From NCBI GenBank assembly GCA_037130265.1, contig JBAXTI010000001.1, positions 98,092 to 162,091 of the forward strand: 64,000 nucleotides of DNA, written 5' to 3'. The notes under the pieces are model-generated. The model searched no databases and was not told the DNA's origin. It was given only the letters and a program-made list of their open reading frames with translations. This document shows positions 17,378-51,456 of the stretch, piece after piece. Position numbers and translations under genes: made by a program. How positions within the stretch are numbered: the stretch's first letter is position 1; each line of letters starts with the position of its first letter. Source of the DNA: a bacterium (lineage in GTDB: Bacteria; Patescibacteriota; Minisyncoccia; Phycocordibacterales; JBBTRF01).

Positions 17378-18886
17378 TTGCCCGTTTGCCGATTGGCAAT
17401 CCTCTCACGTAGTCCAACAACACAACGGGGATATTCCCCAGAAAGGTTCCTTGTGAACTCGCAGCAAAATAACGGTAGTGGTAACGGCACGGTCACGCAG
17501 GCGGTCGGCACTCAAGTGGTGCAGCCGTATGCTGTTCGGTATATTCTACTCCACATGCTTCCGCACATGGACGAGTGGGCGGCCCTCTGGATCGTCCAAA
17601 AATTCGGTGCGAAGGCTTTGCCGGGCGCCGAAAAAGCCCAAGTGCGCTTCGTCGAGCGGGTTCCGCAGATGAAGGTGGAAAACATCGAAGCGAATGGCTT
17701 CCTTTGTCTTGGCCTCGGCCTGGGTGACGGACGCTGGAGCATCGATGAGCACTGTGTAAATGTGCGGGGGAGCGATCGGCTGCCTAATGAGTGCACTGCG
17801 ACGCTCGCCGCCAAGCGGGTCGGCGAACACGCAGATCTCGCCCTCAAGCGCATACTCGACGAAGTGCTCTGGTGTGACACCCAAAGTGGTGTCCGCTACA
17901 CGCATCTCGCCGAGCTAGTGAAGCTCCTACATCGCTTCCTCAAGGGTAATTCCGCCGAGGTTATGAAATGGTTGTTTCCTGCGCTCGAGGCCATCTACAT
18001 GCAACAGGTCCTCGCCATCGCCGCTCAGACGGATGAGCCGAGCCTGTCGGACTTCTTCACTGACTATGCCAAGAAGGCGGAGGTCACGAATGAGAAGCTT
18101 ATCCAGTCGATCGAGAAGAAGATTGCGGACAGCGTCGAGAACATCGACCGCTCGGTGACAGAGTTGGCCTACGTGGTCCGCTCAATGTATCGCCAAGGTG
18201 TCTCCAAGGAAACGATCTACACGTTCTGCTCCAAGGTCTTCGAGGCCTGGGAGTTCGACCAGGTCGAATTCGATGAGGCGCTTGTTGTGGTGGATGCGTC
18301 GCCTACCTTTGCTGTCACGGTGAAGGGGAGCGAGGAATTCGAGCTCAAAGCGACGGTGGTGAGGGGCGACTCTCTCCATCTCCTGAGGGCAGCGAACTTC
18401 CGCGGCAATCGGTTGGTTGTTATCCAAAACAGCCGGGGCCAGGTGCAGATCTTCGTGAACACCAAGACGCCTGACTTCGTCACCCTCGACACGCTCGTCG
18501 GTATGGTGCGGTTGCTGGAAACAGCGCCCGCAAAGCGCAAGGTGCTCAACTGGCAGGCGATCCGGAAGACAGCAGGAGAGTTTGTTGTGCCGCAGTGGTA
18601 TTACTTCCGAGACGCTCGGCAGCTCTTCAATGGCTCCTCGACCCACCCTGCGGTGACGCCGACGGAAATCCATCTGCCCGCGATCGTGGACGCCTTGAAG
18701 CATGCCTTCCATCCTCGGCTCATTGCCAAGTGGATGCATCGCATCGGTGATCCGCTCAACCTGTTCGGTCGGAAGCCCGAGTCGGATTCGGCTGTGAAGT
18801 CGGCCGCAAGGCTGGTTGCCCAGGTGGTGCAGAGCGACCTCGGGCCTGCCCTCGATGGTGCGCCGCCGGCTGACACCGCGGCCTAG
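17378..18886 (+). CDS. Hypothetical protein, GC-rich (ORF from TTG 17378; more likely start ATG 17555, about 443 aa)
   Basis: Long ORF with protein-like hydrophobic periodicity; GC and codon usage (CGC/CGG/GCG/CCG) differ from neighbours; motifs HMDEW, GLGLGDGRWSIDEH; no family recognised. Confidence 0.6.
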   Translation: MPVCRLAILSRSPTTQRGYSPERFLVNSQQNNGSGNGTVTQAVGTQVVQPYAVRYILLHMLPHMDEWAALWIVQKFGAKALPGAEKAQVRFVERVPQMKVENIEANGFLCLGLGLGDGRWSIDEHCVNVRGSDRLPNECTATLAAKRVGEHADLALKRILDEVLWCDTQSGVRYTHLAELVKLLHRFLKGNSAEVMKWLFPALEAIYMQQVLAIAAQTDEPSLSDFFTDYAKKAEVTNEKLIQSIEKKIADSVENIDRSVTELAYVVRSMYRQGVSKETIYTFCSKVFEAWEFDQVEFDEALVVVDASPTFAVTVKGSEEFELKATVVRGDSLHLLRAANFRGNRLVVIQNSRGQVQIFVNTKTPDFVTLDTLVGMVRLLETAPAKRKVLNWQAIRKTAGEFVVPQWYYFRDARQLFNGSSTHPAVTPTEIHLPAIVDALKHAFHPRLIAKWMHRIGDPLNLFGRKPESDSAVKSAARLVAQVVQSDLGPALDGAPPADTAA

Positions 18887-18944
18887 TCGCCAGTCTGCTT
18901 GTTGAAAATTCGGTAGAGCGTTTCGTACGCTCACACACACGAAG

Positions 18945-18973
18945 CCCAGGTTCAACACCTGGGTTTTCTTTTT
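18945..18973 (+). terminator. Rho-independent terminator
   Basis: cccagg-ttcaaca-cctggg plus ttttcttttt. Confidence 0.7.
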
Positions 18974-19014
18974 GCATTTTCTAAAGCGTATTTTGTTGCT
19001 ACAATAGAAGTACT

Positions 19015-21306
19015 ATGGCAGAACGTCCTAAGGCCCCAGAATCATTGACGACGAAATTTAACGCGGTAAACAACTCAGAACAGCTCTGCGCTGCTTTAGA
19101 CGCGATTCCAGCCACGACAACTTTTTTGATCACCGACGTGCCACGTGGTCAGGATATTGCACCAGGTGACAAGGGGGCGGTTATTAAATTGGTACAGCAA
19201 CTTTTTGAATTTGCCGATGCCTCCACGATGCGTACCGATTCGGATATTACTGGCCGAACTTCTTTCCTCGAACAGTTAATTAAGGAAAGCGTCATCGAAG
19301 ATGGTGAAGAAGCACTCAGTCTCATAAAAGCAATTCAACGAGCGATGCTTAGTGAATTTCCGGAGTATGGAGATGGAGCAGTGTCTGGACAGCCAACTTC
19401 TCCGACCCCAGGCGTACCGCAGCCGACTCCAGGCGAAGTCCTGGTTTTGCCAGCGGCATTTGAATTCAATGATGTGGCAAGGGACGCTCTGGGGGCTTTG
19501 GGTTGGCCAGTAGAAATGATTGATCGATTGACTCCTGAAAAAGCCGAGAAGATATTGAAAGAACAAAAGCCTTATGTTGTTTTGAAAAAGGTGCCGGCAG
19601 CTCCTAAGGTGGCGCCGACTGTTCCACCCCAACCCACTCCAAAAGCACGTCCCTCGGCTCAAAAACCAGCCGCACCTAGTGCGCCAGCCGTTCTACTGAC
19701 ACCGAAAGGTCAGGCAGCTGCTGATCTTTCGAGACTTTTGCCTAAAAAGCCAGAAGTTGTTGTTGCGGCTGCGGCTACATCTGCGACAGGCGCGCCTGCG
19801 GCCCCTGGCATTGAAACTATTGCGACCGTCTTTGACAGCCCGGAATTTCGCGCGTTCATCGCGAAAACACCGAATGCTCAGGAACTTATGTTGAGGCAGG
19901 ACATGGCCGAGATCGGTTTGTATAAAAAAGCTTTTGAAATAAAAGACAAGTTGGCCACTGACCTGTATGTGCTTGCCAACGGCGCAATCAAGGGCGACTT
20001 CCTTCTTGATTTTGAGAACTCCGCTTCGAATCTGCCAAAAAACGGCAAAGCGGAATTTCAGAAGTATGTAGATGCTGAGGCGCTCGAGCGACCAGAACAG
20101 CTGTTGAATCTCGCCACTCAGCTCGAGACACGACAGGTTTTAGAGAAAAATATCGGTACTGCAAAGGCTGAGTTTGAGCGTCTTGGTGGGAAAGATCTCT
20201 TTGATAAGGCAGAACGTGAGGCTGCTGAAATGAAGCAGCACCTTGAGCGCGCTCACGAGAGCACTCGCCGCGACTCGTTGGTGGGATATGTGCCACACGG
20301 TCTGCATCTCGCTTACCTGAGGTTGTCACATTGGGTGTATGAGCGGTGGGCCGGATGGGAGGGGCAGACCGAAGCTACAGTGAAAGCGGATTTTGAACAG
20401 CAGCGAAAGGATTTCTTGATTAAACACCCGGAAGCCACGCTCACGCCATCAGAAAGATCTGATCTAAACAAGATTACTCAGAATGAAATCGTGAAGCTTG
20501 CTGGCCTCAAAGAGCATCAAAAATTAGGGGAGAGAATGGTGGAGGTTTCGGAGTGGGGTGTATCCCGTGAGAAATTGAAGGGGGGCAGCGTTAAGCTCGG
20601 TCTCGGCAGTCTCACTAGCTATAGTCCGTCGTGGTGGACTGCACATCCTGATATTGCCCGTGAGTTAGACGCGGTGAACGGTCGGCTTGCTGATATTCGT
20701 CAGAGGAAGCAGACGATCGAGCAGGCAGAAAAAAATCTTGCGGACATCACTGCAAGCTTTGAGACGATCCGCACTTCGGTATATGCTGAATTGCCACCGA
20801 CTATTGCATTGGTTCGATATGCCCAGGTCCAGATCAAAAATACCCTCACTTCCTTTACGGCGGATACGGCAGTGGAGGATCTGCAGAGAATTTACGATTA
20901 CGCCATCTTCCTCGGCGAGAATCAGCGTCAGAGCTCTGATGTTGGAAAAAATACAGGCAAGAGTGCTTTTGCTCTAATGAATACCGCTGAGGTCCGTGTT
21001 GCTGAGAACAAAATCCATGAAGCCATCGTCGCCCAATGGGGGAGGCAGGTACTCGACGTTTTTGCAAAGACTAATTTGAATAAGAAGGGTGCAGGTGCCG
21101 AAATGGAAAAGACGATCAAGGCACTATTGAAGAAGGAGGCGATCGGACAGTACAGAAATGAGGACGAAAAGATCGCTGTCGTGAAAGCTCTTCTTGTTGA
21201 GGCTTTCAAAAAAATCGATCCGGCTAAGGGCGATGGTCAGGAGCGGCGTTTGGTACTCATGGGTGTGATGATTAATTGCGGTCTGTTGAAGCCAGGTGAA
21301 AAATAA
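19015..21306 (+). CDS. Hypothetical 763-aa protein with Pro/Ala-rich linkers and a long predicted helical/coiled region
   Basis: Extended -10 (TGcTACAAT) upstream; linkers PTSPTPGVPQPTPGE and APKVAPTVPPQPTPKARPSAQKPAAPSAPA; no NTPase or other known motifs. Confidence 0.65.
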   Translation: MAERPKAPESLTTKFNAVNNSEQLCAALDAIPATTTFLITDVPRGQDIAPGDKGAVIKLVQQLFEFADASTMRTDSDITGRTSFLEQLIKESVIEDGEEALSLIKAIQRAMLSEFPEYGDGAVSGQPTSPTPGVPQPTPGEVLVLPAAFEFNDVARDALGALGWPVEMIDRLTPEKAEKILKEQKPYVVLKKVPAAPKVAPTVPPQPTPKARPSAQKPAAPSAPAVLLTPKGQAAADLSRLLPKKPEVVVAAAATSATGAPAAPGIETIATVFDSPEFRAFIAKTPNAQELMLRQDMAEIGLYKKAFEIKDKLATDLYVLANGAIKGDFLLDFENSASNLPKNGKAEFQKYVDAEALERPEQLLNLATQLETRQVLEKNIGTAKAEFERLGGKDLFDKAEREAAEMKQHLERAHESTRRDSLVGYVPHGLHLAYLRLSHWVYERWAGWEGQTEATVKADFEQQRKDFLIKHPEATLTPSERSDLNKITQNEIVKLAGLKEHQKLGERMVEVSEWGVSREKLKGGSVKLGLGSLTSYSPSWWTAHPDIARELDAVNGRLADIRQRKQTIEQAEKNLADITASFETIRTSVYAELPPTIALVRYAQVQIKNTLTSFTADTAVEDLQRIYDYAIFLGENQRQSSDVGKNTGKSAFALMNTAEVRVAENKIHEAIVAQWGRQVLDVFAKTNLNKKGAGAEMEKTIKALLKKEAIGQYRNEDEKIAVVKALLVEAFKKIDPAKGDGQERRLVLMGVMINCGLLKPGEK

Positions 21307-21315
21307 CCACATAAT

Positions 21316-21684
21316 ATGGCACCAAGAAAGAACAATTCAAGCGTCCCGTCAAAGGTTTTTGCGAAGCGTTCCGCTGGTACGGGTCGTGTTGGTGTTGCGA
21401 AAAAAGCCGACTTTTCGAAGCTTTCCGAACTCGTCGAAAAGCGCGACATGGTTGGGGCGCAGGCACTCATCGATGATTTGATGAAAAAGAAGCTCACCGA
21501 GGCTGAAAAGGCGCGGATTCATATGGATATGCTCTCGACCTATCTCGAAGTGTCGAACGAGCTCAACAAGCACTATCTCGCGGAGCTTGAGGATGTGGTG
21601 GCTTTCATGAAAGAGTTGAAAAAGGAGGAAAAGGTGGTCTCTGAGGAGCTTGCTTTGGCAAAGGTGCGTGCGAAGCTTGGCTAG
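21316..21684 (+). CDS. Hypothetical 122-aa alpha-helical protein
   Basis: 10 nt after the previous stop; charged helical composition; no homology recognised. Confidence 0.5.
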   Translation: MAPRKNNSSVPSKVFAKRSAGTGRVGVAKKADFSKLSELVEKRDMVGAQALIDDLMKKKLTEAEKARIHMDMLSTYLEVSNELNKHYLAELEDVVAFMKELKKEEKVVSEELALAKVRAKLG

Positions 21685-21745
21685 AAATGTGGTTGGTGTT
21701 TGCTGAGCGGTTGGTGGCAGGTGAGGCTCGGTATATAATACAGAC

Positions 21746-24502
21746 ATGAATCCCGGTCCTGAAGCGTTGCACACCCCTGAGCAAGAGCTCGCTTTTTTGC
21801 GTGAGCAGGTGTCGCAGAAGGAGCGCGAGCTTCGCGAGCGCGGGGAGGCGCAGCCCCTGCAAGAGCGGGTGATGAAGGAAAAGCTTGTCGAATACCAGGG
21901 GCTTCCGACTGAAAAGGTGCTCGCCCCAGATCATCGTCTCACTCCGGCAGCGTCTGAGGCGATCGTGCTGAATATTGCTCCCGAAGCACATGACGAAAAG
22001 ATGGCGGAGCTCCTCGCTGTCCTTCAAAAGCATGGTTTGAAAAACGCCCTCGATGTCGTTGAAAAGTTGAAAAATCCGCACCTCGAGGACGATTTTCATC
22101 GCTTTGTAATCCAATACATCAAGGCCGGCCATCGCGTTGATCAAATGAATCCAAAAGAAGCGATTTCCAAGGCGTTGAAAATGACATTGTACGAGATCGC
22201 ACTTCCAGAGCGTGACGGTGAAGCGCCAGAAAAGTCGCTCAAGGAGCTCGTGTCTTCGATGGAGCAGTTTTACTCCGGTATGTCTTCCGTCGCCGATGAT
22301 GACGACACTTCTGCGCACTACTTCACTATTGAGCTTGCTGTTTCCAATTATAGTGACGAATTCGTATTTTATATGGCGGTGCCGGATACGAAGCGAGATT
22401 TGTTTGAGAAGCAGATTTTGGGTATTTTTCATAACGCACGCATCACTGAAAAGAATGACGACTACAACATCTTCTCTGAGAAGGGGGTCGTGGCTGGCTC
22501 GGCGATAGGGTTGGACAAGAAGCCAGCACTGCCGATAAAAATGTATGACCAGTTTGATCACGATCCACTCAATGTTATTCTGAACACATTTTCAAAGATC
22601 AAGCGCGACGGCGAGGGCGCGGCACTTCAGATAGTGTGCATGCCGGTAAAAGACGACTTTTATTTGAAGCGATATCGACGAGCCATCGAACGTATCGAGA
22701 AGGGAGTGAAGACAAAAGACGCGATCGACTTTCCTGACACTTTTTTCGACCACTTTAGCCACATTTTCAAGGGTTCAACTGCGCCAAAAAAGCCAAAGGA
22801 AGGCGAAAAATCAGACATCCGTGTGGATGATGCGGCGATTGAGGAGATCAAGCGAAAGCTCGAAAGTCCGACCATGCTCACCAATGTCCGTCTGATGGTG
22901 TCAGCTGATACCGACACCGCGGCAGAGCGTATTTTGAGCGACATGGAGTCGGCGTTCAATCAATTCCAAAACACACAAGGTAATCGCTTCACTTTCGAGC
23001 GCATGAAGAAGGGTAGATTGCAGAAATTTGTCGATGCGTTCGCGTATCGTCTGTATGACGAGGATACGAAATTGGCATTGAGTCTTCGTGAGCTCACTAC
23101 GGTGATGCATTTACCGGCGACCGTCTTGAAATCGGCGCCGCAACTAAAGATTTCTAAGGCAGGTACCGCACCTGCGCCGCTTGATTTGCCGAAGGGAGGT
23201 ATCTTGCTGGGCGTGAATGAATTCCGCAACATGAAGACGGATATCCACATGACTCCGGAAGACCGCCTTCGCCACTTCTATGTTATTGGTCAGACTGGTA
23301 CTGGTAAGACGAGTTTGTTGAAGAATATGATCGTGCAGGATATCAAAAATGGCGACGGTGTCTGCTTCATCGATCCGCATGGCAGCGATATTCAGGATAT
23401 TCTCGCGAAGATTCCGAAGGAGCGCTACGAAGACGTTATCTATTTCGATCCGGCATACACCGAGCGACCGATGGGTTTGAACATGCTCCAGTACGATCCT
23501 CGCTTCCCAGAGCAGAAGACCTTTGTGGTCAATGAAATGCTCTCTATCTTCAACAAGCTCTTCGATATGAAGACGGCGGGTGGTCCGATGTTTGAGCAGT
23601 ATTTTCGTAATGCCGTGCTTTTGACTATCGACGATCCGTCTTCTGGCGGGACGTTGCTCGATGTGTCACGTGTGTTGTCGTCGAAGATTTTCCGCGAGCA
23701 AAAATTGCTGAAATGTACCAATCCAGTAGTGACCCAATTCTGGAGAGAGGTGGCGGAGAAGGCGGGTGGGGAGTCGTCTTTGGCAAATATCGTGCCGTAT
23801 GTGGTGAGCAAGTTTGATACATTTTTGAGTAACGACATCATGCGGCCGGTGATCGCACAGGAGAAGTCGACCTTCAATTTCCGTGAGATCATGGATACCA
23901 AGAAGATTTTGTTGGTGAATTTGTCGAAGGGTCGCTTGGGCGATATCAATGCCAATTTGATCGGCCTTATTTTGGTGGGCAAGATTTTGATGGCCGCTTT
24001 GTCACGCGCGGATTCGCTCAATGGGCAGGCAGGAGCGCCGCAGATGCCGCCATTCTATCTGTATATTGATGAGTTCCAGAATGTGACCACCGATTCGATC
24101 TCGGTTATCCTGTCTGAGGCACGAAAGTACAAGCTCAGTTTGAATATTGCACACCAATTCATCGCGCAGCTCCAAGAGGGGATTAAAAATTCTGTGTTTG
24201 GCAACGTCGGATCGATCGCGGCGTTCCGCGTTGGCGCTGAAGATGCGGAGTATTTGGAGAAGCAGTTTGCGCCGGTATTTACGGCCAAGGACAGCATGAA
24301 TGTCGACAATTATCAGGCATACGTGAAGCTGTTGGCTGGTGGCCGGCCGGTGAAGCCGTTCAGCATGCAACTCGTCGCACCGCAACCCGGCCGGCCGGAT
24401 CAGATAGAAAACCTCAAGCAGCTTTCGTACATGAAATTCGGCCGCAATAAGGCCGATGTCGAAGCCGAGATTTTATTAAAGTATCAGAAAAAGAACGCAT
24501 AA
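21746..24502 (+). CDS. P-loop ATPase of the HerA/FtsK-VirB4/VirD4 (DUF87-type) superfamily with an about 480-aa acidic N-terminal extension and no TM segments
   Basis: Walker A GQTGTGKT, FIDPHG motif, Walker B FYLYIDEFQNV, SLNIAHQ motif. Confidence 0.75.
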   Translation: MNPGPEALHTPEQELAFLREQVSQKERELRERGEAQPLQERVMKEKLVEYQGLPTEKVLAPDHRLTPAASEAIVLNIAPEAHDEKMAELLAVLQKHGLKNALDVVEKLKNPHLEDDFHRFVIQYIKAGHRVDQMNPKEAISKALKMTLYEIALPERDGEAPEKSLKELVSSMEQFYSGMSSVADDDDTSAHYFTIELAVSNYSDEFVFYMAVPDTKRDLFEKQILGIFHNARITEKNDDYNIFSEKGVVAGSAIGLDKKPALPIKMYDQFDHDPLNVILNTFSKIKRDGEGAALQIVCMPVKDDFYLKRYRRAIERIEKGVKTKDAIDFPDTFFDHFSHIFKGSTAPKKPKEGEKSDIRVDDAAIEEIKRKLESPTMLTNVRLMVSADTDTAAERILSDMESAFNQFQNTQGNRFTFERMKKGRLQKFVDAFAYRLYDEDTKLALSLRELTTVMHLPATVLKSAPQLKISKAGTAPAPLDLPKGGILLGVNEFRNMKTDIHMTPEDRLRHFYVIGQTGTGKTSLLKNMIVQDIKNGDGVCFIDPHGSDIQDILAKIPKERYEDVIYFDPAYTERPMGLNMLQYDPRFPEQKTFVVNEMLSIFNKLFDMKTAGGPMFEQYFRNAVLLTIDDPSSGGTLLDVSRVLSSKIFREQKLLKCTNPVVTQFWREVAEKAGGESSLANIVPYVVSKFDTFLSNDIMRPVIAQEKSTFNFREIMDTKKILLVNLSKGRLGDINANLIGLILVGKILMAALSRADSLNGQAGAPQMPPFYLYIDEFQNVTTDSISVILSEARKYKLSLNIAHQFIAQLQEGIKNSVFGNVGSIAAFRVGAEDAEYLEKQFAPVFTAKDSMNVDNYQAYVKLLAGGRPVKPFSMQLVAPQPGRPDQIENLKQLSYMKFGRNKADVEAEILLKYQKKNA

Positions 24503-24538: not shown

Positions 24539-25162
24539 ATGCCACACACCAACATTCAAAAATACAAATACGAACGCACTTTGGTGGTTATCAAGCCTGA
24601 CGGCATCCAACGCGCTCTCATCGGTGAAATCATCCAGCGATATGAACGCACTGGATTGAAAATGACTGGCCTCAAGATGCTCGTCCCAAAGCCGGATTTT
24701 ATCGAGAAACACTACACGCTCGACCCAGAGTGGCGTCGTCTGACGGGGGAGAAGAATATCAAGGGGTACGAGGCGAAGGGGTTGGTCCATCCGCACAAGG
24801 ATGACCCTCTCAAGGTGACTGAGATCATTCTCCAGAAGCTCAAGAAATACCTATCGAGCGGGCCGGTCATCGCGATGGTGTGGCAGGGTGCGCATGCCGT
24901 GCAGATCGTGCGCAAGCTCACTGGTAGCACTGAACCATTGATGTCTGATGTCGGTACGATTCGCGGCGACTTCGTGTTGGATTCGTACAAGATCTCAGAC
25001 GATGACACACGGGCCGTGCGCAACCTCGTCCATTCGTCTGGATCGGTGAAAGAGGCAGAAGACGAAATTGCTCATTGGTTCTCGCAGGACGAAATTATCA
25101 CCTACAAAACGGTGCAGGAACGCATTCTTTACGACGTGAATCTTGACGGCATCCTCGACTAG
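24539..25162 (+). CDS. ndk: Nucleoside diphosphate kinase (with insertions)
   Basis: ERTLVVIKPDG, active-site region NLVHSSGS. Confidence 0.85.
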   Translation: MPHTNIQKYKYERTLVVIKPDGIQRALIGEIIQRYERTGLKMTGLKMLVPKPDFIEKHYTLDPEWRRLTGEKNIKGYEAKGLVHPHKDDPLKVTEIILQKLKKYLSSGPVIAMVWQGAHAVQIVRKLTGSTEPLMSDVGTIRGDFVLDSYKISDDDTRAVRNLVHSSGSVKEAEDEIAHWFSQDEIITYKTVQERILYDVNLDGILD

Positions 25163-29780: not shown

Positions 29781-30416
29781 CTATTTCTTTTCGATGATGA
29801 CCGTGAGGCCCTTGAGCGCCTTCTTCGGCGGTTCGGCGATCGTGTACTCCTCGGTGATGAGCTTGAGGATGCGTTCGAGGCGCTCTTTGAGGAAGTTGAA
29901 TTCCATGTACTTCGAGCGGCCGGTGAGGAAGAGGTCGATTTTGATTCGATGTCCCTCCTTCAGCCATTCCGATGCCTTTTTTGCTTTCAATGCCAGATCG
30001 TGTTCGCCGGTGCCGATCTTCACTTGGACATTCTTCACTTCGATGACGTGGGCTTTCGCCTTGGCCGCCTTGAGCTTTTTGTTTTGATCGTACTGAAACT
30101 TTCCGTAGTCCATGATCTTCGCGATCGGCGGGACTGCATTCGGAGAGATTTCGATGAGATCAAGACCCGCTGCCAGGGCTTTGTCGAGGGCGTCCTTGAG
30201 GCTGATGACCCCAAAGTTTTCCCCGACAGGACCGATGACGCGTAGCTCCGCGACTCGAATTTGATGATTTATCCTGTGATTTACGGTGCTCACGATGTAT
30301 GAAGTAACCCAGCATTTATAGCACAATAGGCCTTTTTGTGCAATGTTTGGGCCGTCTGGATGGTTGTGAGGCGGGCGAGAAGCGGAATTTCTTATTTCGT
30401 CGCCAATTCTAGCCAT
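29781..30416 (-). CDS. infC: Translation initiation factor IF-3 (ORF extent; true start probably internal, e.g. GTG at 30293 giving about 170 aa, or a non-canonical start as in E. coli infC)
   Basis: IRVAELRVIGPVGENFGVISLKDALDKALAAGLDLIEISPNAVPPIAKIMDYGKFQYDQ. Confidence 0.88.
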   Translation of the reverse strand: MARIGDEIRNSASRPPHNHPDGPNIAQKGLLCYKCWVTSYIVSTVNHRINHQIRVAELRVIGPVGENFGVISLKDALDKALAAGLDLIEISPNAVPPIAKIMDYGKFQYDQNKKLKAAKAKAHVIEVKNVQVKIGTGEHDLALKAKKASEWLKEGHRIKIDLFLTGRSKYMEFNFLKERLERILKLITEEYTIAEPPKKALKGLTVIIEKK

Positions 30417-31408
30417 TTCATGAGGACGCCGAAGTCCTTCTCGCGATTGTCGGAGCCGAGGAGGATGAAGGCGACGCTACGTGAGCTTTTTTGGATGGGG
30501 AGTTGGAACAGGGAAATGAGCGTTTCGCCGGCCTCAGAGGTGAAGCCGGTTTTGCCGCCGAGGAAGCGAGGGTCGTTTGCGAAGAGGTTGATGTTTTGCA
30601 GGTCGCGGTAGGTGGGGGCATCGGTGGCGGAGTAGACGCTGGCGGCCTGGAAGCGATAAGGGTCGGAGCGCTCGGTGTCGAGCATTACCGTTTTCTCGTG
30701 CGTCTTGGTGATGGTGAGAATGTCCGGTGCGAGATCCTTGATACTTTTGGCGAGGAGGAGGAGGTCGTAAGCAGTAGAGCGATTCTGTGCTGAAAGGCCG
30801 GATGGGTCGGCGAAGTATGTGTGGGTCATGTCGAGGAGCGCAGCTTGGCGATTCATTTGGTCGACGAAGTATCCAACATTGCCGAGGCCGTCGTATATGC
30901 CGGCGATTTGGTCGGCTGCGACGTTGCTTGATTCCATGAGGAGCGGATAGAAGAGTTCTTGCACTGGCGATGGTGCGCCGTACTGATGTGCAGTGAGTGC
31001 AGTCACGAGTTTGGTGAGTGAGGCGATGGGAAGAGAGAGGGCGGGTTGGCGACTGATGAGGACTTGGCCAGTGTCGGCGTCGGCGACGAGGAAGGCGGTG
31101 GCGGAAATGTTTTGTGGGCGGGCGATTTTTTGGTCGAGCTTGATTGCTGGTTTTTCGAGCCAGGAGAGCTTGGGTTTGGCGGCGGAGTCGATGACGGATT
31201 GTGGGCCGCCGTTAGTCTTGGCGAGACGTTGACGAATGTTTTTTGTTTCTCGTTCGGTCTGTGCCGTCTGCGCGGCGGATCTCGGCGAGAAATGTGCGTA
31301 GGTGGAGCGGCCGAGGAGAATAGTGATCAATAGGAGGCCGCCCCATTTCAGAGTGAAGGCGAGGCCTTGGGTGTCGAGGGTGCGGGGCGGGGTGTAGAGA
31401 GGGTCCAC
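30392..31408 (-). CDS. D-alanyl-D-alanine carboxypeptidase (peptidase S11, PBP5/6-like)
   Basis: SxxK (IASLTKLV), SxN (MESSNVAAD), KTG (GGKTGFT) motifs; N-terminal signal/TM. Confidence 0.85.
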   Translation of the reverse strand: MDPLYTPPRTLDTQGLAFTLKWGGLLLITILLGRSTYAHFSPRSAAQTAQTERETKNIRQRLAKTNGGPQSVIDSAAKPKLSWLEKPAIKLDQKIARPQNISATAFLVADADTGQVLISRQPALSLPIASLTKLVTALTAHQYGAPSPVQELFYPLLMESSNVAADQIAGIYDGLGNVGYFVDQMNRQAALLDMTHTYFADPSGLSAQNRSTAYDLLLLAKSIKDLAPDILTITKTHEKTVMLDTERSDPYRFQAASVYSATDAPTYRDLQNINLFANDPRFLGGKTGFTSEAGETLISLFQLPIQKSSRSVAFILLGSDNREKDFGVLMKWLELATK

Positions 31409-31491
31409 GGGATAATGATAGCATGGGGAAGAATTTGAAAAATTGATAGAAAGACGTAGTGTTTTTTCTGCGAAGGTTTATAATTGTAGGA

Positions 31492-32322
31492 ATGTCAGAG
31501 CAAATTACCTCAACTGGCCACAATAAGGAGTTCGAGTCGATCAAAGAAATCGACGAAAACGGTATTGAGTTCTGGAGAGCCAGAAATCTATTTTCTTTGC
31601 TTGGGTATGCGACGTGGCAGGCTTTTGATGAGGTTGTTTTACGTGGTGCCAAAGCGGCCCTAAATAGCGGTCAGGTGGTGGAAAACCATTTTAGCCGGTT
31701 GACTAAAATGGTCGAGACAGGGTCTGGTGCTAGGCGAGAAGTTAAGGACTGGAAACTTGATCGCTATGCATGTTATTTGATCGCCCAGAATGGCGACTCA
31801 AAGATTCCGCAGATTGCCTTGGCTCAAACGTATTTTGCTATTCAGACACGAAGGCAGGAAATATTTGATACGTTGTCCGAAGCAGAGAAAAGGCTTTTTA
31901 TCCGCGGGGAGGTGGCTAGTGAAAACAAGAAATTGTTTAAGACCGCAAAGGAAGCGGGAGTTTCTCATTTTGGATTATTTAATGATGCCGGATACAAAGG
32001 TTTGTATGGTGCACCGCTCTCTGTTGTTGAGGCGAAGAAGGGTATTAAGAAAGGAGAATTATTAGATCGTGCTGGTGCGACAGAGCTTGCGGCTAATTTG
32101 TTTCGTATCACACAGACGGATGAAAAGCTGAAGAAGGGTGGTGTGAGGGGCGATGGTCCTGCCCAGAATGCCCATAACATGGTCGGCGGAAAGATTCGTC
32201 AGACGATAAAGGATATTGGTGGGGAATTGCCAGAAAATTTGAAGCCGGAGAAGCATATCAAAGAGGTTGAGAAAGATGTGAAGCAGTTAGGGAAAGGGAA
32301 GAAGCTTTTTGATAATAAATAA
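31492..32322 (+). CDS. dinD: DNA-damage-inducible protein D homolog (Bro-N/KilA-N-like N-terminus)
   Basis: Blocks RYACYLIAQNGD, TYFAIQTRRQE, EKRLFIRGE, GATELAANLFRITQTDEKLKK shared with E. coli DinD; ATG 31492 preceded by aggaa RBS. Confidence 0.8.
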   Translation: MSEQITSTGHNKEFESIKEIDENGIEFWRARNLFSLLGYATWQAFDEVVLRGAKAALNSGQVVENHFSRLTKMVETGSGARREVKDWKLDRYACYLIAQNGDSKIPQIALAQTYFAIQTRRQEIFDTLSEAEKRLFIRGEVASENKKLFKTAKEAGVSHFGLFNDAGYKGLYGAPLSVVEAKKGIKKGELLDRAGATELAANLFRITQTDEKLKKGGVRGDGPAQNAHNMVGGKIRQTIKDIGGELPENLKPEKHIKEVEKDVKQLGKGKKLFDNK

Positions 32323-32488
32323 TTGTACTCGTATGAAGATTCGTTCTAAAAAGCGTGCCATCGGAGCTGTTCTGTGGGCTCAAGCCGAGCCGACTGTACG
32401 AGGTGATTTGCGAGAGCTTGTGAAGTATCTAGCAGAGTAATTTTTTGGGCGGTTGAATGTCTTGAGGATGTGGTGTACTGTGGTGGAT

Positions 32489-32680
32489 ATGAGAAAGTTA
32501 TTGGTGTCGATGCTTCTGGTGGGGAGTTTAATCGGTTCCTTTGCGACGGGTATGGAGGCGAAAGCGAAGGCTTCGAACTATGGGCCGATGGCGCAGTGTC
32601 GAGATGGGACGTATAGCTATAGCATGAATCATCGCGGGACGTGTTCGTGGCATGGAGGGGTGAGGGTGTGGTTTAGGTAA
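32489..32680 (+). CDS. Small secreted DUF3761-like protein
   Basis: Signal peptide then CRDGTYSYSMNHRGTCSWHGGV, the DUF3761 signature (C.DGTYS.S.....GTCS.HGGV). Confidence 0.7.
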   Translation: MRKLLVSMLLVGSLIGSFATGMEAKAKASNYGPMAQCRDGTYSYSMNHRGTCSWHGGVRVWFR

Positions 32681-32687
32681 CAATGCT

Positions 32688-33506
32688 ATGAAGAAATTTC
32701 TTTCAATTTTGGTTTTGGTAGTGCTCGTGACCCCTCAGGTGGCGATGGCAGCTTGGTGGAATCCGTTTAGTTGGAGTGTGTTTCAGAAAAAGGAGGCGAA
32801 TGTGCAACAATTGGAGGTTCGAATCAAGGAGTTGGAAAAGAAGTTGGAGGCCGCTTCGACGACAGAGAAGGTTGTGGTTCCGAAGCCTGTTGTTGTGGAG
32901 AAAAAGAGTGTGAAGAAGGTGGTGCCGGTGGTTGAGGAAGAAGTTGCACCAGTGGTGCCGAAGACGTTTGTTTTGCCGAATGGGAGCGTTGTTGATGTAG
33001 CGGGGAATGTGGTGAGTGCGGCGCCAGTTAAAGACGATAAGACCATCGGTGAGGATTATTTTAATGAGCATAAGACTTGTGCCGGGTTGAGGGACGTTCA
33101 GCCTAATTCGTATTCATTCTGTGTTGATTATGCCCTTAATAAGGTGGACGTACCGGTCAGTAATTCGCAGAGTGTCCAGGGCGACAAGTTTACTGGCGAG
33201 AATTATTTCAAGGAACACAAAACCTGCGCAGGACTGAAAGATGTAAATGCTAACCAACATTCTTTTTGTATCAGTTATGCATTGAATGGTGACAATTCGT
33301 TTGATAGTAAGCAGTCGAGATTAAATGCTATAAATCTTAAGATCGCTAATCTTAATGCGAAATATGCTAAAGATCTTGCTGCCGCAAGAACGCAAGGAAG
33401 TAGTACTGATTATTCCGAAGGACTGATGAGATACATAAGTATTCAGTACAATATTGACTACGCAGCCTTAATGGCTGAATTCCAACAAATTCAATACAGC
33501 AATTAG
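32688..33506 (+). CDS. Secreted protein with two tandem about 45-aa Cys-containing repeats
   Basis: Signal peptide MKKFLSILVLVVLVTPQVAMA; repeats GEDYFNEHKTCAGLRDVQPNSYSFCVDYALN / GENYFKEHKTCAGLKDVNANQHSFCISYALN. Confidence 0.7.
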   Translation: MKKFLSILVLVVLVTPQVAMAAWWNPFSWSVFQKKEANVQQLEVRIKELEKKLEAASTTEKVVVPKPVVVEKKSVKKVVPVVEEEVAPVVPKTFVLPNGSVVDVAGNVVSAAPVKDDKTIGEDYFNEHKTCAGLRDVQPNSYSFCVDYALNKVDVPVSNSQSVQGDKFTGENYFKEHKTCAGLKDVNANQHSFCISYALNGDNSFDSKQSRLNAINLKIANLNAKYAKDLAAARTQGSSTDYSEGLMRYISIQYNIDYAALMAEFQQIQYSN

Positions 33507-33646
33507 TGGGGGAATTGGTCACAGGTTCTTTTTGCTCCGCAAAAATCCCCGCGACCCCGCCTCGCTCGGTGCAATTCGCTTCGCTCATATAGCACCGTCG
33601 CTCCGGCTTTCAATTCCTGCTTCCATGTTTCCAAACAAACAAAAAA

Positions 33647-33670
33647 GCATCCGGGGAGGATGCTTTTTTG
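33647..33670. terminator. Bidirectional terminator (A-run / gcatcc-gggga-ggatgc / T-run) serving the minus-strand tmRNA
   Basis: Hairpin flanked by A and T runs, immediately 3' of the tmRNA end. Confidence 0.7.
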
Positions 33671-33677
33671 TTTGTTG

Positions 33678-34069
33678 TGGAGATGGGAGGAATTGAACCC
33701 CCGTGCAGAAGAGTCTAGTGAATGGGTCTACGAAGGGTAGGGCGCTTCTATGTCTGCGGGGCAGACAATTCGCGTGTGCCGTTATGAAACGACCGAAAGG
33801 CGGCTCGCGCTATTCCCATGATCTCGAATCGGCGGCGGGACTCCGCTGATCCTATTCCACAAATATAGCGTCAGGACCGAACGGTGTGGAAACCATCCGG
33901 CTGGCGTCGCTTAGGCTTTAGCGTAAGCGAATGCAAAGTCGTTCGCACTTGCGTACGGAGACTTTACAGATCCAAGTTTTGCACTTAGAATTTTCAGCCT
34001 TTTTAAGAGTTACTGAAGCTCTCCTTCGCACATTCAAGAGATATTCTTCCGTCGATGCCTGGCATCCCC
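33678..34069 (-). ncRNA. ssrA: tmRNA (SsrA), about 392 nt
   Basis: Minus strand 5'-GGGGATGCCAGGCATCGACGG... and 3'-...GGGGGTTCAATTCCTCCCATCTCCAC (tRNA-like T-arm and acceptor); candidate tag ORF ...GCGAACGACTTTGCATTCGCTTACGCTAAAGCCTAA (ANDFAFAYAKA*); smpB immediately upstream. Confidence 0.85.
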
Positions 34070-34149
34070 GTATGAAAATCTGTTTGTGTGGAGCCGACTC
34101 GCATGTACACATCATCTTTTGTGATGTGGGCGCGGCGGCAATGTTGTTG

Positions 34150-34605
34150 TCAACGATCTCGGTACTCTCGGGCGACGTCGCGCGCAGACTGCTTCTTCTT
34201 CATCGATTCTCGCTTGTCGTGCTTCTTTTTGCCTTTCACGACGGCGATTTCTATCTTCAGTTTCCGACCCTTATTATACACCGAAACAGGCACTATTGTC
34301 AAACCCTGTTTCGACTCAATATTGGCCAATTCCTGAAGCTCTTTTTTACTCAGCAAGAGCTTGCGGATGCGAGCCTGATCAAAATCTTTTGGTGCGTTGA
34401 GGGGTTGAAAAGGCGGAATCTCGGTATTCATCAGAAAGGCCTCGCCACCGCGGATGGTGACGTAGCCGCCTTCGAGCTTGCCGAGCTTGGCGCGGACAGA
34501 CTTCACTTCGGTGCCGAGCAGCTCAATACCAGCCTCGTATTTCTCGAGGATTTCATAATCAAGGCCGATTTTTTTGTGCTGCAACAGCGCCATGGGTATC
34601 ATCAT
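34150..34605 (-). CDS. smpB: SsrA-binding protein
   Basis: GTEVKSVRAKLGKLEGGYVTIRGGEAFLMNTEIPPF...RKLLLSKKELQEL...GLTIVPVSVY...KGKKKHDKRE. Confidence 0.92.
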   Translation of the reverse strand: MMIPMALLQHKKIGLDYEILEKYEAGIELLGTEVKSVRAKLGKLEGGYVTIRGGEAFLMNTEIPPFQPLNAPKDFDQARIRKLLLSKKELQELANIESKQGLTIVPVSVYNKGRKLKIEIAVVKGKKKHDKRESMKKKQSARDVAREYRDR

Positions 34606-34732
34606 AGCATGGGGGAATGGGGTGGCCGCGCTTTACTTCGTCTCCAAAATATGGTATTTCTATAGCTAGTCTAGCAGTAGGGAAAAAAGCAATAAAATAA
34701 TAACCAGGAAAAAAGAAAGGGAACCACACTGT

Positions 34733-44878: not shown

Positions 44879-45622
44879 TTAATGAGCGAGGGCAATAGCG
44901 AGTACCTCGCTGGCGCCCGCTCGCCGCAGTGTCTCGCGGGCTTGCCCCAGGGTGCTCCCGGTAGTCATGACGTCATCGATGATGAATATCTTCCGGTCAC
45001 GCGTATTTTCGCATGCACCGCCAATGTTTGAAACCTCAAAACAATCGTTCAGATTTTTTAGCCGTTCCGCTCGTGAGAGTTTTGTTTGCGGTGTCGTGTG
45101 ATGTTTGCGACGCAGGAGGTCTGGCGCGACACACCACTCCTCATTTTTCGGCAATTGTTCGAGGATCAGTTCAATCTGATTGTATCCGCGCTCGCGCTGT
45201 CGCTTCTCGGAAAGGGGGATCGGTACAAGAAGGATGGGTGCTCTACCACCGTCACTCGTTGAGACATGTTTTTGTAGTTCCTCCGCCACCAACTCGGCAA
45301 AAAGCTTCGCCACCTTGGCATTCTTCCGATATTTCAGTTCCCACACCGCGGCACGGACATGACGGTCACGATAGGAGAGGATCGCACGTGACCAGTCGGC
45401 ACATTCTGGTGGGTAATGGCCACGGAAGCGACGGCTGTGGGGGCTGGATGTGGTGTCGCCGGATGAGATGCTGCCAGCAAAACACTCCGCCGACATCTGC
45501 TCGAGCTCCCGCACCAAGCCGCTTTTCGGAAACAGGAGGTTGAGAATAATATCCAGGGCGGTGTAGAGTGATGCGCGTAAGCTTGTGCGTAGGGTGCTGT
45601 GGAATTTCGCGAAACATTTCAT
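44879..45622 (-). CDS. comFC: ComF family protein (ComFC, phosphoribosyltransferase-like)
   Basis: N-terminal Cys/His zinc-finger region, C-terminal PRTase motif IFIIDDVMTTGSTL. Confidence 0.8.
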   Translation of the reverse strand: MKCFAKFHSTLRTSLRASLYTALDIILNLLFPKSGLVRELEQMSAECFAGSISSGDTTSSPHSRRFRGHYPPECADWSRAILSYRDRHVRAAVWELKYRKNAKVAKLFAELVAEELQKHVSTSDGGRAPILLVPIPLSEKRQRERGYNQIELILEQLPKNEEWCVAPDLLRRKHHTTPQTKLSRAERLKNLNDCFEVSNIGGACENTRDRKIFIIDDVMTTGSTLGQARETLRRAGASEVLAIALAH

Positions 45623-45645
45623 GCTATAATTTTACCACCTTCTCA

Positions 45646-46734
45646 ATGGACAATCCCTTCCGAAAACTTACCGGTCTCTTCAAAAAAGGGGAGTCGAGCG
45701 TCGTTGGCGTGGATATTGGTCCTTCGTCGATCAAGGTGGTGCAACTAAAAAAGCAGAATGGCAGGGCGGTGCTTGAAACATACGGTGCTTTGGCGCTCGG
45801 TCCGTACGCAGGTATCGAAGTGGGGCGTGCCACCCGTCTGCCACCGCAGAAGCTCGCCGAAGCTTTGCTTGATTTGCTTCGAGAGGCAAGTGTCACCACG
45901 AAGAATGCGGGCCTCTCAATCCCAATGTCTTCGAGTTTGGTGAATGTTATCCAAGTGCCGGAAGTGGACCAGAAGCAGCTTGTGCAGATGATTCCGATCG
46001 AAGCCCGAAAGTATATTCCAATCTCAATCAGTGAAGTGTCTCTCGACTGGTGGGTGATTCCAAAAGATGAGACACAGGAAAAAGATGGCAAGCTCGACGT
46101 GTTGCTTGTGGTGATCCACAACGACGCTCTTCAGCAAGCGAGAGATGTCATCAAGCTTTCGGCCCTCGACACCTCTTTCTTCGAGATTGAGATTTTCAGT
46201 ACAATCCGCGCTGTACTTGACCATGAAGCTGATCCGGCGATGATTATTGACCTCGGCGCCGGTTCAACCAAGCTCTACATTGTCGATCGCGGCATTCTCC
46301 GTGTTTCCCATATCGTGACTCGAGGTTCGCAGGATTTCACCCTCGCATTGTCGCAATCACTCGGCATCACTATCGAAGAAGCCGAAGTGATGAAGCGTGA
46401 GAAAGGACTGCTCGCCGGTGCGGAAAACAGTGAGCTCGCTGGTGTGATGACCTCGAGTATCAACATGATTTTCTCCGAGGCCAACCGCGTGCTCCTCAAT
46501 TATCAGAAGAAATTCCACAAAAATGTCGGCAAAGTGGTGCTCACTGGCGGTGGCTCGATGCTCAAGGGTTTTGCTGAGCTCGCCCAGAAGGAGCTTCAGA
46601 CCCCAGTGGTCTCCGCCGATCCATTTACCAAGATCCAGTCGCCAGCTTTTCTCGAAAAGGTGCTGAAAGACGCCGGTCCGGAGTTTGCGGTGGCTGTCGG
46701 AATCGCTTTGCGCAAGCTACAGGAGTTTGATTAG
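45646..46734 (+). CDS. pilM: Type IV pilus assembly protein PilM (actin-like ATPase fold)
   Basis: VGVDIGPSSIKVVQL..., GGGS motif LTGGGSMLKGF; first gene of the pil cluster; extended -10 tgctataat upstream. Confidence 0.85.
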   Translation: MDNPFRKLTGLFKKGESSVVGVDIGPSSIKVVQLKKQNGRAVLETYGALALGPYAGIEVGRATRLPPQKLAEALLDLLREASVTTKNAGLSIPMSSSLVNVIQVPEVDQKQLVQMIPIEARKYIPISISEVSLDWWVIPKDETQEKDGKLDVLLVVIHNDALQQARDVIKLSALDTSFFEIEIFSTIRAVLDHEADPAMIIDLGAGSTKLYIVDRGILRVSHIVTRGSQDFTLALSQSLGITIEEAEVMKREKGLLAGAENSELAGVMTSSINMIFSEANRVLLNYQKKFHKNVGKVVLTGGGSMLKGFAELAQKELQTPVVSADPFTKIQSPAFLEKVLKDAGPEFAVAVGIALRKLQEFD

Positions 46735-46802
46735 CCTCCCGCCCCTAGGATATACACAGTGTCCGGCAAGCGCTCCAGACTATTCCGTACTATAATAGAC
46801 GG

Positions 46803-47408
46803 ATGGATCCGAAGATGCAGTCCTCTTTCATCCCCAAGACGTCGATCTCTGCCGACCGAGGTGGACGTTCATCTAGTACGGTCAATCTTTTTTTTCTGAT
46901 TTCCGTCCTCATACTCATCGTCACCTTGGCAATTGCCGGCTTCTTTTTCTTCTATAATGCCAATCAGCAGAAGCAGATCGACACTATCACCGCCAGCTTG
47001 ATTGCCTCTGAAAAGAAAGACTATTCTGAGCCAATTGTCGATGCTTGGACCGCCCTCGACAAACGCACTCGTGCTGCCAATGAAATGTTGCAGCGCCATT
47101 ACGCTGTTTCGAGCCTATTCAAGCTTTTGCAGGATTTGACAGTGAAGAATATCCGCTTCACCCGCTTTGACTTCACACTCAAGGACGACGCAGCTGAGAA
47201 AACTTCCATCAGCTTGGCACTTTCTGGAGAAGGGCGTAGCTACAATGCCGTCTCGTACCAGTCTGACGTAATGAAGTCTTCCGAGAGTTTGGATGATGCA
47301 CTGTTTTCCGATATCCGCTTGGATGAGAAAGGAAACATTCTCTTCTCGATGAAGGCTTCGGTCGATCCGGATCTCACTTCTTATAAGAAATTGTTCATCG
47401 CACAATAA
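46803..47408 (+). CDS. pilN: PilN-like bitopic pilus assembly protein
   Basis: Short cytoplasmic N-terminus, single TM, periplasmic domain; position after pilM. Confidence 0.6.
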   Translation: MDPKMQSSFIPKTSISADRGGRSSSTVNLFFLISVLILIVTLAIAGFFFFYNANQQKQIDTITASLIASEKKDYSEPIVDAWTALDKRTRAANEMLQRHYAVSSLFKLLQDLTVKNIRFTRFDFTLKDDAAEKTSISLALSGEGRSYNAVSYQSDVMKSSESLDDALFSDIRLDEKGNILFSMKASVDPDLTSYKKLFIAQ

Positions 47409-47412
47409 CACT

Positions 47413-48195
47413 ATGTCCCCGAACATCACCGCCCTTGTCTTGTTGATCGCCTCTGCTGGGGTAGCCTTTGGCTTGGTCAGTCCACAATATGCAAAATATC
47501 AGGTGCTTTCGGAGAGCAAGGTGCAATATCAGACGGCGGCCGACCAGGCAAAGAAAGTGCGCGAGGTACGCGAAAAGCTCATCTCTAGTGCAGCCAATAT
47601 CTCCAACCTGGAGAAGGACCGTCTGGCCCGCATGTTGCCCGACACTGTGGATACGGTGCGTCTGACCATAGACATCACAGGTATTGCTTCGAAGTATGGC
47701 ATTTTGATCAAGAAAATCGATGTGAAGCCAGATGAGAAAAATGCAAACTCGGCTATGCTCGTAGCGTCGCCATTCGCTACCGCTCAAAAAGCGCAGAGTT
47801 TCAATGCACTGCCAATCTCTTTCACACTCAACACAAGCTACGAAAATTTCAATAGTTTTTTATCTGACCTGGAAAAGAGTCTGCGCATGATCGATGTCGT
47901 GTCTATCTCGGTCGTGCCAAACCAGGTCGGTCAATATGATTTCTCGGTGGCCGCACGTACCTATTCATTCGTATCCGGCACGGCGCCGATGGTATCTTCT
48001 AAGACATCTCCGGTTTCTGCCGCGGCCGATGATCCAAAGGTGAAGGTGTTGCTAATGCTCGAGCGCCTTTCTTCTTTGAAGCTCGATCGCGGATTCTTCG
48101 ATAGTCAGCTTTTCAAAAATCTCCGTGACTTTGGAGTCGAAGTGGTGGCGGAGCCAAAAGGTCGACCGAACCCATTCGCGCCGATCGGTCAATAG
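47413..48195 (+). CDS. pilO: PilO-like bitopic pilus assembly protein
   Basis: Single N-terminal TM plus coiled coil; position between pilN and pilB. Confidence 0.55.
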   Translation: MSPNITALVLLIASAGVAFGLVSPQYAKYQVLSESKVQYQTAADQAKKVREVREKLISSAANISNLEKDRLARMLPDTVDTVRLTIDITGIASKYGILIKKIDVKPDEKNANSAMLVASPFATAQKAQSFNALPISFTLNTSYENFNSFLSDLEKSLRMIDVVSISVVPNQVGQYDFSVAARTYSFVSGTAPMVSSKTSPVSAAADDPKVKVLLMLERLSSLKLDRGFFDSQLFKNLRDFGVEVVAEPKGRPNPFAPIGQ

Positions 48196-48198
48196 CCT

Positions 48199-49926: not shown

Positions 49927-49959
49927 TAACAATGATGACACTTTTTAAATAACACCCAC

Positions 49960-50355
49960 ATGGAAAACAGTAACAAAAAGAAAATACTCATCGTGGACGA
50001 CGACAAGTTCCTCGTGAACATGTACTCGATCAAATTCAAGGCGGCCGGCTTCGATGTGTATTCGGCGTTTGACGGTCAGGAGACACTCGCCAAGCTCAAG
50101 GATGGTCTTGTGCCTGATGTGGTGATGCTCGACATGATCATGCCGGCGATGGACGGCGTGGAGATCCTTGCGCGCATTCGAAAAGAGAATCTCGTGCCGA
50201 AGGCCAAGGTGGTCATTTTGTCGAACCAAAACCAGCCTTCGGATATCGAGCGAGCGAAGGCGTTGGGCATCAGTGGGTACATTGTGAAGGCGACGACGAT
50301 TCCATCGGAAGTGGTCGCGGAAGTCGAACTCATCTTAAAGGAAGACTTGCAATAA
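49960..50355 (+). CDS. Single-domain response regulator (CheY-like receiver)
   Basis: ILIVDDD...D(54-like)MIMPAMDG...K; 131 aa with no output domain. Confidence 0.8.
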   Translation: MENSNKKKILIVDDDKFLVNMYSIKFKAAGFDVYSAFDGQETLAKLKDGLVPDVVMLDMIMPAMDGVEILARIRKENLVPKAKVVILSNQNQPSDIERAKALGISGYIVKATTIPSEVVAEVELILKEDLQ

Positions 50356-50356
50356 G

Positions 50357-51424: not shown

Positions 51425-51456
51425 AAAGCCTCGCGTGAAAGCGCCAACATATTCAC

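Follow-up and report, generated by a model that had tools for sequence, protein, structure and literature searches.

The 64,000-nucleotide stretch analyzed here (hereafter the window; forward strand of contig JBAXTI010000001.1 of the Patescibacteriota assembly GCA_037130265.1) contains a complete open reading frame (ORF), running from an ATG to a stop codon, that encodes a protein of 763 amino acids (aa). The protein is identical to NCBI WCO79_00640, and this name is used below. Its gene is found in the order ribosomal protein operon, SecY, Adk, Map, a 502-aa ORF, WCO79_00640, a 122-aa ORF, an ATPase, NDK, a sortase, an NYN-domain protein (an assignment taken from homologous loci) and RNase J. 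The N-terminus MAE[RTL]P is common to five aligned homologues, which supports the assigned start codon. We report here on WCO79_00640 and on the two genes that follow it, encoding a small helical protein, named SMALL, and a soluble ATPase. The coordinates of these and other features are listed in Table 1.

WCO79_00640 is built from three folded parts that are connected by two linkers. A preliminary description of the sequence had proposed a globular N-terminus of about 120 aa followed by a linker, a small module and a second linker, and the AlphaFold2 (AF2) model agrees with this order. In the model, residues 10-114 of the N-terminal domain form five helices and two strands with predicted local distance difference test (pLDDT) scores of 83-93, and the small module, which we call LG[WY]P (residues 153-183), forms helices at 153-161, 166-169 and 174-183 with a pLDDT of approximately 85. 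The full-length model has pLDDT values below 50 exactly at residues 122-147 and 190-266. The linker sequences quoted in the preliminary description were found at aa 127-141 (PTSPTPGVPQPTPGE) and aa 194-225 (PAAPKVAPTVPPQPTPKARPSAQKPAAPSAPA). Proline, alanine, threonine and serine together make up a fraction of 0.54-0.59 of the linkers versus 0.21-0.31 of the folded parts, and proline alone 27% and 21% versus 3-7%. The claim of a 763-aa ORF with two Pro/Ala/Thr-rich linkers was therefore confirmed by translation, composition and predicted disorder. Among the homologues, the linkers differ in length and sequence while their composition is kept. A short helix at residues 238-241 is the exception to the low pLDDT of linker 2. 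All 10 close homologues share, with little or no change, the motif A-[DN]-L-x-[KR]-L-[LM] (aa 236-242), of which A236, L238 and L241 are invariant in every one.

Downstream of linker 2, the full-length AF2 model consists of helices only. When modeled alone, the C-terminal 501 aa formed 17 helices with a mean pLDDT of 83 and a predicted template modeling score of 0.58; this stand-alone model of the C-terminal domain (CTD) was built from 12 sequences. A crude heptad score identified only aa 546-593 as a coiled-coil-like stretch, which gives the C-terminal part the appearance of a helical domain more than of a long coiled coil. The earlier expectation of approximately 500 aa of helical or coiled sequence holds in its helical part. 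The protein ends with ...GLLKPGEK, and its extreme C-terminus is conserved and basic, reading ...GDGKERR...GLLKKGEK in the close homologues and GKAKR in the distant ones. Across the distant CTD homologues, F278, P360 and G711 are the only invariant residues.

Table 1. Positions of the features discussed in the text, numbered from the first nucleotide of the window.
Feature	Position	Strand	Details	Basis
WCO79_00640 gene	19015..21306	+	763 aa; proposed large subunit of the module (CTD family)	ORF and translation
N-terminal alpha/beta domain	19015..19377	+	aa 1-121; acidic, isoelectric point (pI) 4.4	AF2, hidden Markov model (HMM), composition
Linker 1	19378..19455	+	aa 122-147; 27% proline; predicted disordered	pLDDT, composition, variation among homologues
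LG[WY]P module	19456..19584	+	aa 148-190; three helices	AF2, HMM
Linker 2	19585..19812	+	aa 191-266; basic, pI 10.8; 21% proline	pLDDT, composition
Short motif ADLSRLLPKKP in linker 2	19720-19752	+	aa 236-246	Alignment
CTD	19813..21303	+	aa 267-763; all-helical; conserved and family-defining; co-occurs with the ATPase	
SMALL gene	21316..21684	+	122-aa helical protein with basic N-terminal tail; starts 9 nt past the WCO79_00640 stop	
ATPase gene	21746..24502	+	918 aa, soluble; DUF8128 N-domain and TraD/VirD4/HerA-like P-loop	
502-aa ORF	17378-18886	+	Between map and the WCO79_00640 gene	
Terminator-like hairpin	18941..18967	+	11-bp stem and T run, between the 502-aa ORF and the WCO79_00640 gene	
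Extended -10-like box TGcTACAAT	18997..19005	+	9 nt before the WCO79_00640 ATG	Read by eye; not called by a simple two-hexamer scan
NDK gene	24539-25162	+	207 aa	
Region of high GC skew	30000-34700			
BRO-N domain protein gene	31459-32322			
ORF	32688-33506			
ORF	33931-34665			
PilM-like gene	45568-46734	+	Type IV pilus cluster 45568-52659	
PilB-like ATPase gene	48199-49926	+	Type IV pilus cluster	
PilT-like ATPase gene	50357-51424	+	Type IV pilus cluster	
PilC-like T2SSF protein gene	51457-52659	+	Type IV pilus cluster	

Scans of WCO79_00640 against Pfam, NCBIfam and PADLOC assigned it to zero families; the PHROGs scan gave a single insignificant match (E-value 0.002), and the PDB sequence profile search gave chance-level matches only (E-values of at least 0.45). 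The Pfam scans were extended to 11 CTD proteins and 10 SMALL proteins with E-values up to 5, and revealed no family common to more than two of the former and no family shared by the latter. The best matches in the structure searches were coiled-coil segments of MukB, JetC, Rad50, SMC and IpaB. Neither WCO79_00640 nor SMALL showed, in the family, PDB and structure searches, a sequence or fold likeness to any accessory protein of type IV coupling proteins (T4CPs), and neither matched a relaxase or relaxosome accessory family in Pfam or NCBIfam. The lack of family matches and the presence of only three invariant residues across the distant members point to a non-enzymatic protein, and the earlier remark that no catalytic motif can be recognized holds. 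It had also been considered that a profile search could reveal a known housekeeping protein, such as a divergent cell-division protein, and no such protein was matched in Pfam, NCBIfam or PDB.

The relatives of WCO79_00640 were found in metagenome-assembled genomes (MAGs) of Patescibacteria. Ten homologous clusters were present among 5.8 billion, and an exhaustive read of 1.84 billion representative proteins yielded approximately five significant relatives; four matches were below an E-value of 1e-30, and the distant members P0011 (9e-24) and P0016 (5e-4) were retrieved as well. No further members came from a second, word-indexed search, for which the alignment had been broadened. The 185,579 species genomes of GTDB contained a single locus, and no homologues were present in the phage, plasmid and viral-contig collections. 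The family is tiny and restricted to a few uncultivated lineages of Patescibacteria.

The preliminary description had favored a cell-surface protein or a structural component associated with a pilus or a type IV secretion system (T4SS), for example a receptor-binding protein. Wall-spanning surface proteins do have linkers like these, rich in Pro/Ala/Thr; in addition, a sortase is encoded 4 kb downstream, and the window also contains type IV pilus genes. However, neither hydropathy analysis (maximum 19-residue Kyte-Doolittle value 1.35) nor inspection of the polar N-terminus (MAERPKAPESLTTKF...) revealed a signal peptide or a transmembrane (TM) helix in WCO79_00640, and the LPXTG-type sorting pattern LP.[TSA][GAN] was not matched. 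These sequence features predict a cytoplasmic protein, and as the signal peptide, the TM helix and the LPXTG signal are all absent, they lend no support to a role at the cell surface, in a pilus or in receptor binding. The pilus cluster is 24 kb away from the gene and outside its conserved neighborhood, no ORF in the window has the size of VirB4, and the sortase gene is missing from three of the loci (L009, L012 and L013) that carry homologues of all three genes. We consider the surface, pilus- or T4SS-associated, and receptor-binding roles extremely unlikely.

The ATPase encoded downstream of SMALL has an FtsK/HerA-superfamily P-loop with Walker A (GQTGTGKT) and Walker B (YIDEFQ in YLYIDEFQN) motifs. 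It matched Pfam DUF87 weakly (24.4 bits, cut-off 23.2), stayed below the Pfam cut-offs of TrwB_AAD_bind (18.8 vs. 20.5) and TraG-D_C (21.6 vs. 22) and far below the NCBIfam cut-offs of TIGR03743 TraD (53.9 vs. 366) and of the CD1115 VirD4-like family (41.8 vs. 250), so that the curated threshold of no T4CP model was reached. The closest PDB sequence was TrwB with an E-value of 0.005. P0019, which is identical to the ATPase of the window, carries PF26449 (DUF8128), a domain mentioned by no paper in a full-text literature search, and phrog_5156 matched residues 146-910 with an E-value of 5e-82. No N-terminal TM anchor was found in the ATPase, the N-terminal 480 aa of which are hydrophilic; its sole hydrophobic peak (aa 734-752) is situated between Walker A and Walker B and was therefore read as buried core. 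No virB4, channel or relaxase genes were found among the ORFs of at least 500 aa in the 64-kb window or in the related loci. More than 1,800 homologues with approximately 60% identity were retrieved, the best matches being labeled Taylorbacteria, Paceibacterota or Parcubacteria. Full-length relatives that include the DUF8128 region are also present in phages, with 21-22% identity over 76-86% of the query in tblastn. In the excerpts of PMC12102498, Patescibacteria are described as encoding thousands of VirD4-like T4CP homologues that are not located near virB4, and its authors consider exaptation of these to another function possible.

To follow the association between WCO79_00640 and this ATPase, 95 ATPase loci were examined, 80 of which were drawn from a metagenome scan. 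An iterated HMM search over the ORFs of these loci showed that the CTD and SMALL families always occur together and always beside the ATPase. Context could be read in 14 lineages (the window and 13 others), and in each of them the CTD gene is followed by the SMALL gene and the pair abuts the ATPase gene. SMALL homologues of 94-130 aa start 1-45 nt past the stop codon of every CTD gene (alignment A5). The order is CTD-SMALL-ATPase in the window and in L001, L004, L007, L008, L012 and L097-L099, and ATPase-CTD-SMALL in L009, L013, L016 and L022. These loci include the distant CTD members, as P0011 belongs to L008, P0016 to L009, and a 1019-aa protein of a Taylorbacteria MAG to L012, while the CTD proteins of L013, L016 and L022 are 424, 440 and 394 aa in size. 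At L009, the entire trio is located between MurB/SecA and Obg/GatB and not between Map and NDK. The homologue P0005 and the ATPase P0020 are both listed with a contig of 14,266 bp, which was counted toward the linkage. In a neighbor-joining tree, the pair-bearing ATPases fall largely into one sub-clade. The linkage is thus tight and resistant to rearrangement, with two gene orders and one relocation, and the association with a neighboring DUF87-type ATPase that had been suggested from the sequence is strongly supported.

The members of the trio have diverged at very different rates. Between the window and L001, L004 and L007, the identity is 89-93% for the ATPase, 86-90% for Map, 91-95% for NDK, 86-92% for RNase J, 72-87% for SMALL, and only 53-62% for the CTD. 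In the more distant lineages, the CTD retains 25-32% identity and the ATPase 58-73%. With a motor at approximately 90% and a partner at approximately 55% identity, the partner is likely to be specificity-determining or exposed to conflict. The architecture of the CTD proteins is also plastic; the domain occurs alone (394-440 aa), with the N-terminal domain and the module (722-811 aa), or with longer multi-module extensions (1019-1160 aa). Matches to the HMM of the N-terminal domain were limited to the short-form close homologues of 722-811 aa, whereas the LG[WY]P module HMM matched all long forms, including the distant 1019-aa protein of L012 (E-value 5e-22), and no other ORF in the 95 loci.

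Rapid divergence, a very small family, and close homologues that for the most part share the complete 20-kb synteny block are also what would be seen if WCO79_00640 were lineage-specific, weakly constrained filler without a functional link to the ATPase, its adjacency merely reflecting shared ancestry. The adjacency, however, outlasts both the re-ordering of the genes and the relocation of the trio, where the ATPases are 58-65% identical to that of the window. In addition, the CTD folds confidently (pLDDT 83) and its motifs can be recognized at 16-22% identity. As the adjacency survives rearrangement and the CTD keeps its fold and its motifs, the domain appears to be under constraint, and we regard a chance neighborhood as very unlikely.

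Based on the predicted cytoplasmic location, the non-enzymatic helical build, the linkers with variable heads, the pairing with SMALL, and the rearrangement-resistant linkage to the motor, we tentatively propose that WCO79_00640 is the large, fast-evolving adaptor or scaffold subunit of a three-gene cytoplasmic module with an orphan T4CP-like ATPase, a reading to which we give slightly less than an even chance. The scaffold-like character suggested by the preliminary description is kept in this proposal, while its surface, pilus, T4SS-structural, and receptor-binding parts are not. The module would consist of WCO79_00640, the helical SMALL of approximately 100 aa, and the soluble, hexameric-type P-loop ATPase with its DUF8128 domain and TraD/VirD4-like motor, and it would be confined to one sub-clade of Paceibacteria-type Patescibacteria. 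The helical CTD, together with SMALL, may dock on the ATPase or regulate it, and the variable heads (the alpha/beta domain, the LG[WY]P module, and the short peptide) on their flexible linkers could recruit the cargo of the ATPase. We infer that WCO79_00640 may contact the ATPase physically and may act as an adaptor and not as a substrate; the cargo might be either DNA or protein.

Several observations weigh against this proposal. The CTD/SMALL pair is missing within 7 kb at approximately 70 of the 95 ATPase loci, and a relaxed HMM search for CTD and SMALL in these loci gave nothing significant; the usual ATPase locus reads Map, ATPase, NDK, RNase J. The ATPase therefore either needs no such partner in general or uses non-homologous ones. 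No Rosetta-stone fusion joining the ATPase with CTD or SMALL was found. The close homologues share the whole block of approximately 20 kb of the window, and since most of them come from closely related genomes, synteny alone is a weak argument, so that the case for linkage depends chiefly on the distant trios that were re-ordered or relocated. Finally, the CTD evolves much faster than the ATPase. An obligate subunit would not quite be expected to behave in this way, and a substrate or a host-facing protein would fit equally well.

The last point leads to the main alternative to the adaptor reading, in which WCO79_00640 would be a translocated effector or substrate of the T4CP-like ATPase and SMALL its chaperone or adaptor, comparable to VirE2/VirE1 or to the effector-adaptor pairs that dock on T4CPs. 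The low identity of the CTD, where Map, NDK, RNase J, and the ATPase reach 86-95%, is compatible with such a role, as are the N-terminal modules, which are variable, expandable, and carried on disordered linkers, and the small helical partner encoded directly downstream. C-terminal signals are frequent in T4CP substrates, and the conserved, basic extreme C-terminus of WCO79_00640 would be in line with this. On the other hand, T4CPs are coupled to their channel by a membrane anchor, which is missing from the ATPase of the window; no VirB4 or channel genes are present in the window; and conservation of WCO79_00640 is highest in a large folded helical domain and not in a short signal. The T4CP-like genes of Patescibacteria are, moreover, mostly located away from virB4 according to the excerpts of PMC12102498. 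On balance, we consider a substrate with its chaperone unlikely.

The same motor could also act on the chromosome. A linker-rich helical protein might tether an FtsK/TraD-like motor to a cellular landmark and so serve as a scaffold in chromosome segregation, DNA handling, or division. The trio resides in a vertically inherited housekeeping locus (the ribosomal protein operon, SecY, Adk, and Map on one side, NDK and RNase J on the other), the high conservation of the ATPase across its homologues would suit such a task, and the homologue in phage SPO1 is encoded beside genes annotated as 'partition protein' and 'replication initiation by nicking'. The phage annotations are labels only, however, and the absence of CTD and SMALL from most ATPase loci would be unexpected for a core segregation factor. 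No likeness to known division or segregation proteins was detected in Pfam, NCBIfam, PDB, and the structure searches. Furthermore, their acidic composition makes the N-terminal domain and the LG[WY]P module poor candidates for DNA binding, and only linker 2 and the N-terminal tail of SMALL are basic. This scaffold function appears distinctly unlikely to us.

Through this locus, one clade of the orphan VirD4-like ATPases of Patescibacteria gains a defined and conserved pair of partners, and what had been an orphan ATPase beside hypothetical proteins becomes a three-protein system that is open to testing. Neither the WCO79_00640 family nor the SMALL family has been annotated so far, and the same holds for their link to the DUF8128 ATPase. 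It is possible, although doubtful, that the three proteins constitute an undescribed Paceibacteria machine in which an exapted, membrane-free DUF8128 ATPase is steered by an adaptor and a cofactor of approximately 100 aa, while other clades use non-homologous pairs. If so, the ATPase would be a conserved motor to which each lineage adds its own, interchangeable targeting modules, possibly to deliver cargo in an episymbiotic lifestyle.

Another clade of the ATPases has, downstream of the ATPase gene, an unrelated protein of 660-930 aa with TM helices and Pro-rich linkers, which is followed by a DUF5663-like helical protein of approximately 100 aa. This pattern was seen in L060, L063, L065, L070, L071, L075, L076, L085, and L088, and the entries L012:10572-10862, L087:9876-10250, and L090:9742-10053 are listed with it. 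The possibility that these pairs are divergent CTD and SMALL proteins was rejected, as the hhalign probability was at most 0.5%. The arrangement of a motor, a large linker-rich protein, and a helical protein of approximately 100 aa thus recurs with different parts.

In the region upstream of WCO79_00640, the box preceding the ATG may represent a short-leader or leaderless promoter, to judge from its bases. Another 6 nt separate a TATAAT box from the ATG of the ATPase gene (21734-21745), and no Shine-Dalgarno sequence is evident before either gene. The hairpin, the -10-like boxes, and the missing Shine-Dalgarno sequences suggest separate, possibly leaderless, starts within the apparent operon. 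The 502-aa ORF has no match in Pfam, NCBIfam, or PADLOC. Its homologues (444-480 aa) are present exactly where the WCO79_00640 homologue is short (722-811 aa; L004, L097, and L099) and absent where it is long (1051-1160 aa; L001, L007, and L098). The idea that the ORF corresponds to the N-terminal extension of the forms of approximately 1050-1160 aa was nevertheless rejected, as BLASTP detected no similarity.

Farther downstream, the 207-aa length of NDK is kept in the related loci. Its Pfam match is split in two, the best part covering residues 98-186 and profile positions 57-135, which suggests an N-terminal extension or an insertion. The region of high GC skew reaches 0.26-0.28 per 2-kb bin compared to approximately 0.0-0.15 elsewhere. 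It contains the gene of the BRO-N domain protein followed by two ORFs without Pfam matches, and could be a remnant of a mobile element or prophage.

The T4CPs TrwB, TraD, and VirD4 have small accessory or adaptor proteins, such as TraM, TrwA, and PcfF, and IcmS, IcmW, and LvgA act on DotL. In a similar manner, the TraD/VirD4-like ATPase of the window is encoded beside a helical protein of approximately 100-120 aa and a large multi-domain partner, its closest PDB sequence is that of TrwB, and its best NCBIfam matches are TraD and VirD4-like. Unlike the T4CPs, it scores far under the curated cut-offs (53.9 vs. 366 bits), is anchor-less, and has a large DUF8128 N-domain; unlike at T4CP loci, no relaxase, VirB4, or channel genes are located near the trio, and WCO79_00640 and SMALL lack detectable sequence or fold likeness to the T4CP accessory proteins. 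Accessory proteins beside a coupling-type ATPase are a known idea, while these components and their context are not. The ATPase fits the orphan T4CP-like genes of PMC12102498, being VirD4-like and encoded away from virB4. Partner genes are not described in the excerpts of that report, and the CTD and SMALL pair is an association added here for one sub-clade.

The ATPase has phage homologues that resemble it over the full length, namely Bacillus phage SPO1 gp27.4, phage G gp156, and PHROG 5156, but these have different neighbors: in SPO1 a nicking initiator and a 'partition protein', in phage G a 'VirB-like' protein. The annotated neighbors in SPO1 gp27.9-gp27.3 (L096) and phage G gp155-gp156 (L095) hint that ATPases of this family may process DNA. 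Linker-rich helical scaffolds are known from EzrA, ZipA, and the SMC/MukB-type coiled coils, and WCO79_00640 resembles such scaffolds in its long helices, its disordered Pro-rich linkers, and its low sequence constraint.

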